DNA from: Malacoraja senta
Lineage: Eukaryota
Direction: 5' to 3'
NCBI GenBank assembly: GCA_038087875.1
Contig: CM075987.1
Location: forward strand, 24,678,001-24,742,000
DNA length: 64,000 bases
Shown: in pieces, positions 2,041 to 62,360 of the stretch
Layout: the number at the start of each line of letters is the position of its first letter
Numbering within the stretch: position 1 is the stretch's first letter
Program-made: the position numbers and the translations under genes
The notes under the pieces: model-generated
Databases searched by the model: none
What the model saw: only the letters and a program-made list of their open reading frames with translations
Told to the model about the DNA's origin: nothing

Positions 2041-2303
2041 AAAACTGAGGATGGAAAAATCCAGTCCACCTTCAAATTCCATGGTCACGACATTAACCTG
2101 TAAGATTAATGATTTTGTAAAGCAATACTATGTTTGGTCTGAAGAAGGGTCTCGACCGTAACGTCACCCATTCCTTCTCTCCAGAGATGCTGCCTGTCCC
2201 GCTGAGTTACTCCAGCATTTCGTGTCTTTCTTCGATTTAAACCAGTATCTGTAGCTCCTTCCTATAACACGATGTTTACATATTCTGCTGTGCTGTTGCA
2301 AGA

Positions 2304-2476
2304 TTTGCCTCCATCACAGTGAGGATGTGCTTGGTGAACTCACTGTGGTGGATGTTTAATTTGTGTTTATTGTATGTTTTGTTATTATTGGTTCTGTGTA
2401 TGACTGCAGGCAACATAATTTCGTTCAGACCGAAAGGTCTGAATGACAATAAAGGAATCTATCTATCTATCTATCT
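2304..2476 (+). mobile_element. 3' end of the same GC-rich retroposon family, nested in a Rex1-type tail
   Basis: CCATCACAGTGAG...CTCACTGTGGTGG hairpin; TTCAGACC-GAAA-GGTCTGAA-TGACAATAAA-(TCTA)n. Confidence 0.72.
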
Positions 2477-3468
2477 AGCAAGAATGTCATTGTTCTATCT
2501 GGGACATCTGACAATAAAACACTCTTTACTCTTGATTTGTGCTTAAAAACATAATGATGATTTCATTCTCAACACACGGTAGATTTGCTGACTTACAGCG
2601 CTTGCAGGGCCGGAGACCCAGGTTCGATCCCGACTACGGGTGCTGTCTGTACGGAGTTTGTACGTTCTTCCCGTGACCTGCGTGGGGTTTTCTCCGAGAT
2701 CTTCGGTTTCCTCCCACACTCCAAAGGCGTACAGGTTTGTGTATGTGTAAAATTGTCCCTAGTGTGTGCAGAGTAGTTTTAATGTGCGGGGATTGCTGGT
2801 CAGTGCGGACTCGGTGGGCCAAAATTCCGCACTGTATCACTGACACGAGACACTCATCACATCACAGACTCTACACATACAGCACCTGAGGTCAGGATTG
2901 TGATTGAATCGGGTGTGGAAAAGCATACAGGAAGTTGAGAAGGAAGACACAAAGTATTGTGGTATCTCAGCAGGTCATGTGGAGAAATAGGACGGGTCTA
3001 GCAGAAGCCAGGTCTGGGGCATTGTGAGGCAGCAGCACTGTCATCTGCAGCAATGTGCCGCCCCGCATGTTGAACAAGAGGTTGGAACATCGAGGCAGAG
3101 ACGTCTAAGGGAGGGAATTTCGAAGATGAGGGCTTAGGCTGCCAATGGCAGATCTTTGAAAACAAGAGGCGAAAAATGATAGCAGGTTAGTTTGATTTGG
3201 AGGTACAGCATGGAAACAGGCACTGCGGCCCACCGAGTCCGCGCCGACCCACGAACACCCCGTACACTAGCACCATCCTACACACTAAGAACAATTTACA
3301 ATCTTTACTGAAGCCAATTAACCTATAAACTCGTTCGTCTGTGGAGTGTTGGAAGAAACCGGACACAAAATGCTGGAGTAACTCATTGGGCCCATCCCTG
3401 ATCTCCCCACCATCAAAGGGATTTACAGGAGGCTGCCTCAAAAAGGCATCCAGCATCACCATTTATAC

Positions 3469-3638
3469 ATATATATATATATATATATATGTGTGTGTGT
3501 GTGTGTGTGTGTGTGTGTGTGTGTGTGTGTGTGTGTGTGTGTGTGTGTGTGTGTGTGTGTGTGTGTGTGTGTGTGTGTGTGTGTGTGTGTGTGTGTGTGT
3601 GTGTGTGTGTGTGTGTGTGTGTGTGTGTGTGTGTGTGT
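3469..3638. repeat. (TA)n(TG)n microsatellite
   Basis: About 20 bp of TA followed by about 150 bp of pure TG. Confidence 0.99.
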
Positions 3639-5328
3639 TTATGTATATATGTGATTGATATATACAGTATATATACCAACCTCCTCATTTACACTAATCC
3701 TACACTTATCTGATACAACATTCTTCTCTCCATATTGTTATCAACCCCCCCCCCCCCCACTTCATTCTAACATTCACCTGAACACAAGGGGCAATTTACA
3801 GCACCCACTTAACCGACCAACACATATGCCTTTTGGACGTAGGGCGAAACCGGAGCCCTCAGGGGAAACCCATGCGGTCACAGGGAGAACGGGCAAACTC
3901 CACACAGACAGCGGCCGAGGTCAGGATCGACGGGGAGTCTCTGGCAGCATGTCTACCAGCTGCCCTACTGCGCCCCTCCATGGACTAACATTCCACTCGA
4001 CTAATGTAACTGGGTTGTTTCTGCATCTCAATAGACAATTACGGCATCTTACCCTGAACTGTAGAACAACCCTTGGCACAAGTTGCAAACAATACATTCA
4101 AAGCTCTTGCATTTGTCATTCAACACAGTTTAGACTGACCTTCAGCTGAACTTGTGAACAATTTTTAGAAATGATTAGAATTATTGTACCTAACCGAGCA
4201 ATTACTTGTAGCTCGAGCGCTGCCACATATCATTACGAAGTGGAAAAGGGCCAGAGGTGAGGGTCAGGAACACAAACTGCATCCCCACAGCATCCAGAAC
4301 GCGTGACACGTGTCCTCTGTGTATTGTTCCAGTGATATGATGGATGTGCTCTTATTTGGAGCGGGTTCACGCACTCGTATTGGTAATGCTGGGTGACAGC
4401 GCTACGCTGTGTAAAACAGATGATCACCTTCTGAGAGGACCACGAGAAATTGCAGAGTTGTGACCGCAAGACGTTCCTCAGGTCTCCGACCCGAAACGCC
4501 ACCGATTGCTTTTCTCCAGACATGCTGCCTGACCCGCTGAATTACTCCAGCTTTTTTTGTGTCTATCTTCGGTTTAAACGAACATCTGCAGTTCCTTCCT
4601 ACACGTCTTGGGTCAGGGCCTCCCTCAGACCCATCTCTTTCTTCAGTCTGAAGAAAGGTCCAGATCTGAACGTCACCTACACATGTTCTCCCGCCGAGTT
4701 ACTCCAGCACTTTGCACCTTTCCTTGGTCAACCAGCATCTGCAGTTCCTTGTTTCTACATAACAGACATTCCAAAGCCAATTTACAGAATATATCAGAAC
4801 ATGCCAAATTGGATGCAAGTCAGATAACAGCTCTTGTCAAGTCAAGGAATAAGTCTTTGGCATCCTGGTATCTTGGTATCTTGACAGTCCTGTGCTTTGC
4901 TAACCCAGCCCTGAGCTACTATTTACCCCATTGGAGACTCTCGGACTATCTTTAATTGGACTTTGCTGGAATATCTTGCACTAGATGTTATTCCTGTTAT
5001 CATGTATCTGTGCACTGTGGATGGCTTGACTGTAATCATAACTGCATAGCTCGCAACTAAAGAGGTTTTCACTGTACCTCGTTAATAAACTAAACTTATA
5101 CGTGACAATAAACTAAATCAGCCTACAAATCTGCACGTCTTTGGTGTGTGGGAGGAAACCGGGGCATCAGAAGAAAACCCACGCGGTCACGGGGAGAACG
5201 AACAGGCAGCACCCGTAGTCAGGATCGAACCCAGGTCTCTGCGCTGTGAGGCAGCAACTCTACCGCTGTGCCACCGCGCCGCCTGACTGCTGATCTCACC
5301 TCTAAGTTGCGAGTTTTACGTTGAGTAA

Positions 5329-60741: not shown

Positions 60742-61293
60742 CTTCTGCGGTTGTACAGGGCCCTAGTGAGACCACACCTGGAGTATTGTGTGCAGTTTTG
60801 CTATTGAGGGAGTGCAGCGTTGGTTTACAAGGTTAATTCCCGGGATGGCGGGACTGTCATATGCTGAGAGAATGGAGCTGCTGGGCTTGTACACTCTGGA
60901 GTTTAGAAGGATGAGAGGGCATCTCATTGAAACATATAAGATTGTTAAGGGTTTGGACACGCTAGAGGCTGGAAACATGTTCCCGATGTTGGGGGAGTCC
61001 AGGAACCAGGGGCCACAGTTGAAGAATAAGGGGTAAGCCATTTAGAACGGAGACGAGGAAACACTTTTCCTCAGAGAGTTGTGAGTCTGTGGAATTCTCT
61101 GCCTCAGAGGGCGGTGGAGGCCGGTTCTCTGGATACTTTCAAGTGAGAGCTAGATAGAGCTCTTAAAGATAGCGGTCAGGGAATATGGGGAGAAGGAAGG
61201 AACGGGGAACTGATTGGGGATGATCAGCCATGATCACATTGAATGGCTCGAAGGGCCGAATGGCCTACTACTGCACCTATTGTCTATTGTCTA
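60742..61293 (+). mobile_element. CR1 LINE 3' fragment (second subfamily) nested in a minus-strand CR1 tail
   Basis: RPHLEYCVQF...EGVQRWFTRLIPGM...LYTLEFRRMRG; (TATTGTC)n tail; host tail CCCATCAAGTC|...|AAGTCTACTCCGCC resumes afterwards. Confidence 0.9.
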
Positions 61294-61569
61294 AGTCTAC
61301 TCCGCCATTCAATTATGGCTGATCTATCTCTCCCTCCTAACCCCATTCTCCTGTCTTCTCCCCATAACCCCTGACACCCGTACTAATCAAGAATCTATCT
61401 ATCTCTGCCACAAAAATATCCACTGACTTGGCCTCCACAGCCTTCTGTGGCAAATAATTCCACAGATTCACCACCCTCTGACTAAAGAAATTTCTCCTCA
61501 TCTCCTTCCTAAAGGAACATTGTTTAATTCTGAGGCTGTGACCTCTGGTCCTAGACTCTCCCACTAGTG

Positions 61570-61757
61570 CAGGGGTGTCAAACTCATTTAAACTCATTTT
61601 TGGTTACGGGCAAAATGCGACTTCATGCGCGCCGTTGCACGCGCGAACGCAGCCTGATCCGGCACCGAGGACAGCTGCAGCCCGCTCTAGCATTGGGGAA
61701 ATCATCCCGCGGGCCGGATTGGACCCCTTCGCGAGCCGCATCCGGCCCACAGGCCTG
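61570..61757 (+). mobile_element. hAT (Charlie-like) non-autonomous element with 8-bp TSD, nested in a CR1 tail
   Basis: TSD CACTAGTG at 61562-61569 and 61758-61765; starts CAGGGGTGTCAAAC; GCGGGCCG/CGGCCC subterminal motifs; right TIR reduced to CCTG. Confidence 0.88.
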
Positions 61758-61819
61758 CACTAGTGGAAACATCCTCTCCACATCCACTCTATCCAAGCCC
61801 TGATTTAACCCTTGGATTG

Positions 61820-62360
61820 CGATGTTTCGGGTCGAGACCTTTCTTCACAATAAGTCAAAAGAAGCACAATTTATTCTCCTCCATTATCAGAGTGAGGCCA
61901 AACGCAAATTGGATGAACAGCACCTCATATTTCGCTTGGGCAGCTTACAACCCAGCAGTATGAACATTGACTTCTCTAACATCAAGTAACCCTTGCATCC
62001 TCTCTCTCTCTCTCTCCTTCCCTCCCCCACCCAAGTTGTTGTACAAGGTACAAATTCATCTTATTGAGTCTCATTGTCGGTAACTCGCTTTCACCTAACC
62101 CATAGCTAACAATGGCCTGTTTTCTTTATCATCATTACTTTTTTTGCATATCTTTCATTCATCTGTTCGATATCTTTCTATTTCACCATCTGTATCTCTC
62201 ATTTCCCTTTCCCCTGACTCTCAGTCTGAAGAAGGGTCTCGACCCGAGAAGTCACCTGTTCCTTTTCTCCAGAAATGCTGCCTGTCCCGCTGAATTACAC
62301 CAGCTTTTGGTGTCTTAGATCTTCGGTTTAAACCAGCATCTGCAGGTTCCTTCCTGCACA
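61820..62360 (+). mobile_element. Penelope-like element 3' remnant: GIY-YIG C-terminus, 3' UTR, and pLTR with a hammerhead-like motif
   Basis: 61876-61989 encodes LLHYQSEAKRKLDEQHLIFRLGSLQPSSMNIDFSNIK*, resembling the E..WIFRLGTL.P.G.N end of PLE GIY-YIG domains. It is followed by CTGAAGAAGGGTCTCGACCCGAGAAGTC at 62226 and the terminus ...GCATCTGCAGGTTCCTTCCTGCACA. A short inverted pLTR piece sits at 61822-61848. Confidence 0.85.

Follow-up and report, generated by a model that had tools for sequence, protein, structure and literature searches.

What are the short repeats that crowd a 64-kb stretch of contig CM075987.1 of Malacoraja senta (assembly size, 1.94 Gb), many of which carry a motif resembling a hammerhead ribozyme and many of which are palindromes? 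The first-pass annotation of this stretch, hereafter the window, took them for an independent, retrozyme-like family of mini-elements that is mobilised by the machinery of a Penelope-like element (PLE) and folds back at the ribozyme hairpin. The present analysis confirms the connection with a PLE, and the repeats are best explained as insertions of the terminal module of such a retrotransposon. The short copies (minis) are best read as by-products of PLE activity, with no sign of a separate lineage.

A profile of the repeat was built from 12 copies in the window and used with nhmmer; in its numbering, CTGAAGA, the start of the hammerhead motif, occupies positions 10-16. The search gave 49 repeat arms in the window and 69 in a comparison sample of 190 kb, taken at fixed, arbitrary coordinates on other chromosomes (19 loci; 254 kb and 118 arms together with the window). 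The density is 0.77 arms per kb in the window and 0.36 in the random loci, a difference of about 2-fold, and a rough extrapolation from the 19 loci suggests several hundred thousand arms genome-wide. The motif CTGAAGA-N-GGGTC-NN-GACCC-GAAAC (up to three mismatches) occurs 14 times in the window and never in 100 shuffles; the terminus of type A was found 16 times, with none expected from the shuffles. The other type, B (GGGTTTCGGCCC ... GTT; terminus ...CTTCTTAAACA), is present at 8192, 13904 and 58503. Thus, three statements of the first-pass annotation, that more than 20 short repeats share a fixed end, that many of them contain a hammerhead-like motif and that a subfamily B exists, are borne out. 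The copies are 90 or 136 bases long, and about 90% of the sampled arms are module-only copies. They begin directly with the hammerhead motif and not with a classical head of a short interspersed element (SINE), that is, a tRNA, 5S or 7SL sequence with an RNA polymerase III promoter; Rfam detected no tRNA, 5S or 7SL family in the window, either at the gathering score or with E up to 10. Such minis are undescribed in the literature that we searched on non-autonomous Penelope and SINE elements of chondrichthyans, as far as the accessible parts of those papers go.

The coding parent can be recognised near the end of the window. The frame at 61849..61989 (+), taken from the list of open reading frames (ORFs), is the 5'-truncated end of a PLE ORF, namely the C-terminus after the GIY-YIG region up to the stop codon, and aligns to the ends of long ORFs in two other copies, L001 and L041. 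It belongs to a very abundant family with 64,052 first-look candidates in the genome, from which 150 matches were scored. The longer copy L001 has a 438-aa frame with a GIY-YIG-like motif (...LIYCI.C..CG.LYIGET...), for which the Pfam GIY-YIG match is weak (17 bits, below the cut-off of 22.6; E=0.0073), and the 592-aa frame L041:2552-4327 matches Pfam RVT_1 with 30.2 bits (cut-off, 29.6; E=4.5e-07). For the motif region of the reverse transcriptase (RT), the genome yields 13,246 first-look candidates. RVT_1 and GIY-YIG both occur in the nearest Atlas clusters, the latter in 26-47% of their members; among solved structures, there was no sequence match to the PLE frame. The order is RT and then GIY-YIG, and a Cys-X4-Cys-X2-Cys stretch precedes the nuclease. 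This order and the Cys linker are traits of endonuclease-positive PLEs, according to the part of Craig et al. (2021) available to us, and the family would probably take that clade name, for which the Cys linker motif is the sole basis. Many open frames of 1,200-1,276 aa were recovered when the N-terminal region served as the query, so that the full-length Penelope parents for which the first-pass annotation had advised a search do exist. B-type parents with long intact frames are also present: dozens of B-type copies with open frames of 1,000-1,276 aa share about 82-90% mutual identity, and the PLE family may therefore have been recently active.

In the window, the ORF end is followed by the PLE 3' untranslated region (UTR) at 61990..62219 (+), a CT microsatellite and then a pyrimidine-rich tract ending ...CTGACTCTCAGT, which is collinear with the UTRs of L002, L004 and L021-L040. 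Next comes an ORF/UTR-attached, long-form terminal module at 62220..62364 (+; profile 4-144, blastn), with the hammerhead motif at 62226-62253, the short 3' site near 62315 and the terminus at about 62361. Since the order of stop codon, UTR and module is the same in 22 other PLE-attached copies (L002, L004, L021-L040), the arrangement at 61990-62364 is the rule. An inverted hammerhead stub (61819..61853, minus strand; profile 5-39) is joined to the 5' end of this truncated copy. At the opposite end of the element, L073-L075 each have a sense long-form module that stops 33 nt short of the ATG, with a partial upstream copy ahead of it. Its two positions, behind the 3' UTR and some 33 nt ahead of the ATG, make the module the core of a pseudo-long terminal repeat (pseudo-LTR); it supplies the 5' leader of the ORF as well as the 3' terminal module. 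The Penelope parent proposed from the frame at 61876-61989 is thus substantiated by the RT-bearing family of this C-terminus and by the 22 copies with the module after the UTR, and the claim that Penelope machinery inserted the repeats, with target-site duplications of 12-16 bp, is likewise supported.

The module consists, from 5' to 3', of a conserved (C/T)AGT, a minimal hammerhead motif of the PLE type, a conserved spacer of about 60 nt, a first 3' site, an optional tail of about 40 nt and a second 3' site. The first (short) site reads ...UUUUGUGUCU in A and ...UUUUUGUCUACC in B, and the second (long) site reads ...CCUACACA in A and ...CUUAAACA in B. The 3' ends form two clusters about 40 nt apart: 43 of the 118 arms are short, 52 are long and 23 are unclassed. 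Similarly, when 22 PLE-attached tails were fetched (window copy excluded), 13 ended at parent positions 509-516, five at 556-561 and four elsewhere (483-546). Both ends are seen in ORF-attached copies and in minis, and short-form solo copies with duplications of their own occur in the window (8154/8282) and at L017. The two ends match the optional PLE tail of 30-40 bp known from the accessible part of the PLE literature. The TTTGTCTAC words of the short 3' site recur right after the long terminus, before the ATG (L082, L085, L093; B-type leaders), and therefore both end sites of the complementary DNA (cDNA) adjoin the same short motif. The spacer contains an invariant 8-base AGATGCTG whose complement, CAGCATCT, is in the tail (36103-36241 and other A1 alignment rows); as CAGCAT is present a second time immediately ahead of the short 3' site, either copy could be the pairing partner of the same strand. 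RNAalifold proposes an AGAAGG/CCUUCU stem and an invariant 8-bp AGAUGCUG/CAGCAUCU stem; covariation in these stems is essentially nil, and the bases of the 8-bp stem never vary.

The 5' edge of the minis is sharp and lies 0-8 nt upstream of CUGAAGA. Among the 108 non-extended arms, 71 start at profile position 16 or earlier, and the start density per nt is 5.7 at positions 1-9, 2.9 at 10-16 and 0.2-1.0 further in. In our own tally of 30 solo minis, the 5' ends were located at -5/-6 in 11, at 0 to -2 in about 13 and at -3 in two. Arms that continue into the PLE UTR are few (10 of 118 flagged by BLAST and about seven more recognised by eye). Three mutually unalignable UTR types end alike, with a Y-rich tract and (C/T)AGT before CTGAAGA, and homology between PLE subfamilies begins at the same place as the mini 5' edge. 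The top BLAST matches to a mini were mostly UTR-attached and unusable for mapping mini 5' ends. PLEs are known to keep introns, and an intron ending at the CAG before CUGAAGA was considered on the basis of the pyrimidine tract, this CAG and an AG|GTA overlapping the stop codon. The predicted spliced junction was found at one genome place (up to two mismatches), the B-type UTRs contain no plausible intron donor, and the idea was dropped. Contigs from four public sequencing runs, presumed to be of RNA origin, contain the module but revealed neither molecule ends nor clean splice joints.

All nine flanking direct repeats listed in the first-pass annotation were recovered, seven of them perfect, 9246/9406 with one mismatch and 43311/43931 with two. 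In an automatic scan, flanking repeats scoring at least 10 were present at 17 of 71 elements and at one of 71 displaced controls; the claim of target-site duplications of 12-16 bp therefore holds. Several of the elements bounded in this way are solo or nearly solo minis. The short-form mini at 8170..8281 (+), ending ...TTTTTGTGT, has a partial extra target copy at its 5' side and a perfect 16-bp duplication (8154/8282), and the solo mini at 22455..22585 (-) starts 3 nt upstream of CTGAAGA and has a 12-bp duplication. Two B-type long-form minis carry an inverted stub of only 14-15 nt from the short 3' site: 9262..9405 (+; 14-nt stub, 16-bp duplication with one mismatch) and 58484..58636 (+; 15-nt stub, perfect 16-bp duplication). 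A long-form solo mini at 36096..36241 (+) retains 8-11 nt of UTR upstream of CTGAAGA.

The geometry of the foldbacks is informative as to how they arose. All 19 adjacent inverted pairs among the 118 arms are joined 5'-to-5' and none 3'-to-3', and the three tandem pairs are all partial. In the duplication-bounded elements, the inverted arm always begins at the short 3' site, and its inward length is variable. When the pairs were sorted by their end classes, 11 of the 13 classifiable ones combined a short with a long arm, two were long plus long and none was short plus short (binomial P=0.011; six unclassifiable pairs left out). The inner ends of the ten inverted pairs in the window span profile positions 5-93, with at least one arm reaching position 11 or lower in seven pairs, and asymmetric joins such as 22|6, 34|8, 17|7, 31|88 and 66|6 are found. 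The inner joins differ in every foldback; therefore, each foldback arose at the time of insertion, and copying from a master foldback does not account for them. Over the genome, an exact palindromic join at the start of CTGAAGA exists at 66 places, compared with 2-28 at four other registers. The B-type palindromic join CATCTATGGAG|CTCCATAGATG was found at 28 places on many chromosomes, more than at the hammerhead cut, which points to profile position 51 as a secondary hot spot for B-type arm ends. Accordingly, the palindromes seen in the first pass are real and seven of ten reach the neighbourhood of the motif, but the join is not always at the motif; tabulation of the inversion breakpoints, which had been suggested there, shows that the edge is favoured while the inner joins are all unlike.

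Among the individual foldbacks of the window, 20677..20881 (-) has a long arm at 20669-20789 (profile 22-143), a short arm at 20782-20879 (6-102) and a 13-bp duplication, and 34033..34245 (-) has a long arm (17-142), a short arm (7-110) and a perfect 15-bp duplication. The foldback at 24693..24882 joins a long arm on the minus strand (34-143) to a short arm on the plus strand (8-93). At 60218..60343 (+; 12-bp duplication), an inverted short arm (31-111) is paired with a long arm truncated at profile position 88, and 36289..36412 consists of two heavily truncated long-form arms (93-143 and 71-144). Two foldbacks are joined at the 5' edge, that is, 40091..40390 (5 | 7), with an internal partial tandem in its plus arm, and the B-type 57060..57296 (5 | 5). 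The element at 13908..14136 (-; perfect 16-bp duplication) combines a B-type long arm with several short inverted hammerhead pieces, as if by stuttering near helix II. Finally, in the foldback at 43325..43930 (-; profile 10-97 | 11-98; 14-bp duplication with two mismatches), foreign DNA of 385 bp, placed exactly at the short 3' site, parts a 40-nt tail (43321-43363) from its arm. This piece (43364-43748) has an AATAAA-like signal and a run of (AATCA)n at its end, and it could be a later insertion or the result of a template switch during cDNA synthesis. In a permissive Rfam search, the palindromes at 24754-24872, 40155-40303 and 57099-57233 and an unrelated inverted repeat at 11467-11576 were called MIR2118, MIR1507 and MIR2863; we rejected these plant microRNA precursor labels as long-hairpin artefacts (E down to 2e-06, far below the gathering scores).

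How could a terminal module be inserted alone, and in pairs of unlike arms? In the anole PLE PAc, reverse transcription has two adjacent internal start sites, one at either end of the tail, and both target strands are cut and extended in vitro (Frangieh et al. 2024). By analogy, the PLE protein of M. senta would cut both strands of the target, and each 3'-OH would prime cDNA synthesis at one of the two internal RT start sites; the two cDNAs would run towards the 5' edge of the module and then be joined. Use of one strand would leave a solo mini, and use of both would leave a foldback. The fixed outer end and the short-plus-long arms fit such two-strand priming and do not fit a snap-back of a single cDNA. 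Taken as a whole, this account, in which terminal modules are inserted through priming on both strands and minis are by-products, appears to us probable.

The hammerhead motif deserves separate consideration, since it gave the repeats their initial interpretation. A strict descriptor of the PLE hammerhead gave 14 matches in the 254 kb, all inside the repeat, and none in block shuffles; no other hammerhead family was found in the same 254 kb. The motif has CUGANGA and GAAA cores and a helix II closed by G10.1-C11.1, an unpaired base follows A9 in 13 of the 14 matches, and the majority sequence is GAAA-C-G-U-C/U, in which a palindromic A-C-G-U replaces helix III. The first-pass annotation had rightly likened the motif to the minimal hammerheads of PLEs, whose traits it shows in the extra base after A9, the G10.1-C11.1 pair and the palindromic ACGU. 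In the accessible part of Cervera and de la Pena (2014), these hammerheads likewise have CUGANGA/GAAA cores, a base between 9 and 10.1 and a G10.1-C11.1 pair, lack a helix III hairpin, with A-C-G-U thought to pair between two molecules, and occur mostly as scattered singles with some close opposite-strand pairs. As to differences from that account, helix I has 2 bp here, as in the D. virilis variant, in place of the 4-5 bp of most families, and helix II has 4-5 bp in place of 6-8 bp. Types A and B differ at three points of the motif, all sparing the invariant core (a helix II U-A to U-G change, a loop base and GUC to GUU); these differences are compatible with a hammerhead fold and may lend it weak support. 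The 11 invariant core bases and H17 are all intact in only 18 of 64 motif-covering arms, as would be expected of decaying copies whose core contains a CpG; this CpG has been lost from many copies (identity 0.71-0.72). An excess conservation of the core (0.89, compared with 0.81 in the rest of the module, outside CpGs) was set aside, as it is due mostly to sites that differ between A and B and dead copies drift neutrally. Cleaved templates were also rejected as an origin of the copies: their 5' ends do not form a clear peak at the cut, and the palindromic join at the cut is present at 18 places (six identical, on unplaced contigs), and control registers gave 7, 28 and 2. We found no evidence that any copy edge is ascribable to ribozyme cleavage. 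In the anole element as well, mutation of the hammerhead left insertion in vitro unchanged (Frangieh et al. 2024).

Several observations weigh against the account given above. The RT start sites are deduced from the ends of DNA copies and are thus putative, arm ends were taken from local alignments and may be off by a few bases, and the excess of short-plus-long foldbacks comes from only 13 pairs. A few joins lie inside helix II (L015, at 22|25; the element at 13892; L090/L098), where occasional snap-back may have taken place. In the motif itself, helix I comprises 2 bp in all UTR types (U2.1-A/G1.1 and G2.2-C1.2) and not 4-5 bp, and Rfam hammerhead models, against which the first-pass annotation had proposed scoring, matched neither the window (gathering score, E up to 10) nor two pieces of 170-180 nt at any threshold tried. 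There are 8 arms with 5' ends at the predicted cut where 4.2 are expected (P=0.065), so that a weak footprint of hammerhead cleavage may exist. The sharp 5' edge of the minis is absent from the full-length copies: in 12 informative (near) full-length loci, ten run upstream into the UTR or a previous ORF, two begin within the hammerhead and the edge is the start of none, in a survey in which 19 further regions lacked module coverage and some loci are on unplaced contigs and possibly duplicates. For the cause of the edge, the leading guesses are run-off of the RT at the protein-bound module of the initiating unit, or a short RNA that starts there; a stop acting only in the initiating unit would fit both the sharp edge in minis and the edge-less full-length copies.

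A bolder version of two-strand priming takes the edge and the pairing of unlike arms as the footprint of a dimeric PLE particle, which would carry out coupled target-primed reverse transcription on both strands from different start sites. Run-off of the RT would take place where the hammerhead module, bound by protein, ends; the minimal hammerhead would be mainly a protein anchor or an RNA-RNA pairing element and not a self-cleaver, and the approximately 0.7 million module-only copies would be 'strong-stop' products. We put this forward tentatively, as a possibility that we ourselves doubt.

Do the minis form a lineage of their own? The ratio of A to B is 24:10 in attached copies and 39:11 in minis, with both types in both settings. 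A tree of 58 minis and 14 extended copies, all from the unbiased sample, has 13 label changes, as compared with 13.1 in shuffles; with 25 deliberately fetched PLE tails added, there are 26 changes as compared with 30.6, and 54 of 1000 shuffles are as low. These trees are built on 88 columns of diverged copies and have little power, which also counts against our reading. Nevertheless, attached tails are interspersed with minis, and the claim of an independent family is not upheld. In the anole PLE, moreover, the RNA needed for activity reaches about 55 nt past the RT start into the ORF (Frangieh et al. 2024). From the mixing of labels on the tree, the presence of A and B in both settings and this requirement for RNA beyond the start sites, the minis are read as by-products of the PLE.

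An alternative possibility could be a SINE-like, self-propagating module, with an internal promoter at (C/T)AGT and with read-through RNAs of any copy, minis included, used by the PLE protein. The boundary YY-A-G-T-C-T fits the initiator consensus, YYANWYY, and is kept in the three unalignable UTR types; as the upstream UTR is unconserved, the promoter would have to be internal. With about 0.36 arms per kb in the random loci, the module is present in very many copies, and a PLE protein that starts internally needs no defined 3' end of the RNA. Furthermore, Penelope of Drosophila virilis has an internal, LINE-like promoter with Inr and DPE, according to the accessible part of Schostak et al. 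(2008). However, the (C/T)AGT edge is the starting point of none of the 12 informative full-length loci, only two of the 30 solo-mini 5' ends are at the predicted +1 A (-3), minis and ORF-attached tails are interspersed on the tree, and minis do not contain the region that the RNA of the anole element needs for activity. We consider self-propagation of this kind unlikely.

Still harder to sustain is the initial proposal of a retrozyme-like independent family, whose palindromes would come from snap-back at the hammerhead hairpin. Both arms do reach profile position 11 or lower in three pairs of the window (40091, 43749, 57060), a few joins are inside helix II as mentioned, the 66 palindromes at the start of CTGAAGA outnumber those at other registers, and for tandem retrozymes, which are short and carry hammerheads, an origin from PLE pseudo-LTRs has been proposed (Li et al. 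2026, a preprint of which part was available). Snap-back, however, predicts symmetric arms with a variable outer end, and the copies instead have their outer end fixed at the short 3' site, a variable inner end, asymmetric joins and stubs of 14-15 nt, none of which fits folding at the ribozyme hairpin. Same-orientation adjacent pairs are limited to the three partial ones among the 118 arms, and the motif belongs to the minimal kind known from PLEs, whereas animal retrozymes are defined by a canonical type I hammerhead with loop-loop contacts, according to the accessible part of Cervera and de la Pena (2020). Neither the A:B ratios nor the tree reveals a separate mini lineage. The retrozyme interpretation is therefore very improbable. 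The animal non-LTR retrozymes (Cervera and de la Pena 2020; Li et al. 2026), as far as these accounts were accessible, resemble the copies here in being short, non-coding, hammerhead-bearing and related to PLE repeats, and both probably depend on PLE proteins; retrozymes differ in that their units of 170-400 bp, with canonical type I hammerheads, are arrayed head to tail and expressed as circular RNAs, whereas the copies of M. senta are dispersed singles and foldbacks with the minimal motif.

The least probable alternative is that the repeats are ordinary 5'-truncated PLE insertions whose edge is a limit of conservation or alignment: heavy 5' truncation is known for PLE insertions (Craig et al. 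2021, in part), and homology between PLE subfamilies stops, and alignments tend to end, at the same place, but duplications put real insertion boundaries at the edge (22443, 8154 and 58468), starts are dense at profile 1-16 and sparse further in, both foldback arms meet at the edge, and the palindromic joins at its register exceed those elsewhere.

Insertion of terminal modules with two-strand priming, which we prefer, brings the M. senta family close to two known systems. Endonuclease-positive PLEs (Neptune/Nematis, Penelope/Poseidon), in the accessible accounts, encode an RT and then a GIY-YIG-type nuclease (here a below-cut-off match) in a single ORF, and they have a repeated terminal module (pseudo-LTR) with a hammerhead motif near the 3' end, target duplications, heavy 5' truncation, partial tandems and an inverted partner on the 5' side. 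An optional tail of 30-40 bp is common to both, and here only one of the two arms bears it in 11 of 13 classifiable foldbacks. The part of Craig et al. (2021) that we could consult counts among the general traits of PLEs both the inverted, 5'-truncated partner and the tail, which is often confined to one end, and no qualitative difference from these elements is shown here. With PAc (Poseidon, Anolis carolinensis), the family shares a hammerhead 60-100 nt upstream of two adjacent cDNA start/end sites that bound the tail, and the position of the module at the junction with the ORF start; extension of both strands would explain the inverted partners. Neither study has evidence for a part of hammerhead cleavage in shaping the inserted copy. 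The ORF of PAc begins within the hammerhead, with the start sites 111-118 nt into the ORF, whereas here the whole module precedes the ATG; moreover, PAc was studied biochemically in vitro, and the M. senta family is known from sequence alone.

Further arms of the window, from the nhmmer table, are a long-form solo mini at 2134..2269 (+) and other solo arms at 4471-4608, 4643-4752, 8481-8618(-), 15380-15492, 21275-21380(-), 21815-21946, 22060-22149(-), 23086-23178, 29996-30135, 32938-33075(-), 45482-45659, 55882-55989 and 57829-57920. An assembly gap of 200 N (8692-8891) is located beside the long-form mini at 8481-8618. Frames with a CR1-like motif (...RVV.LWNSLPQ.AVEA.S...FK...) are present at 60086-60241(-), 61030-61146(+) and 61337-61603(-); we take them to be the C-terminus of ORF2 of a CR1-like long interspersed element (LINE), in which case LINE tails presumably surround the truncated PLE copy. 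Outside the window, a 339-aa open frame (L002:1935-2954) adjoining a PLE copy is presumably Tc1/mariner transposase-like.

The qualitative features of this family, that is, the minimal hammerhead, truncation, inverted partners, the tail and two start sites, are already described for PLEs. What is new is the numbers in one genome: the dominance of module-only copies, the sharp 5' edge of minis that is absent from full-length copies, and the foldbacks with unlike ends. To our knowledge, PLE insertion is poorly understood and has been the subject of only one biochemical study (2024). Hundreds of thousands of natural insertion products with readable edges are thus a cheap test bed for the in vitro model, by virtue of their two 3' ends, their obligate 5'-to-5' joins that favour unlike arms and their sharp 5' stop beside the hammerhead, and the same copies bear on the long-open role of the PLE hammerhead. 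The proper label for such copies in genome annotation is PLE tail fragment; they should be entered neither as microRNA hairpins nor as a new SINE.

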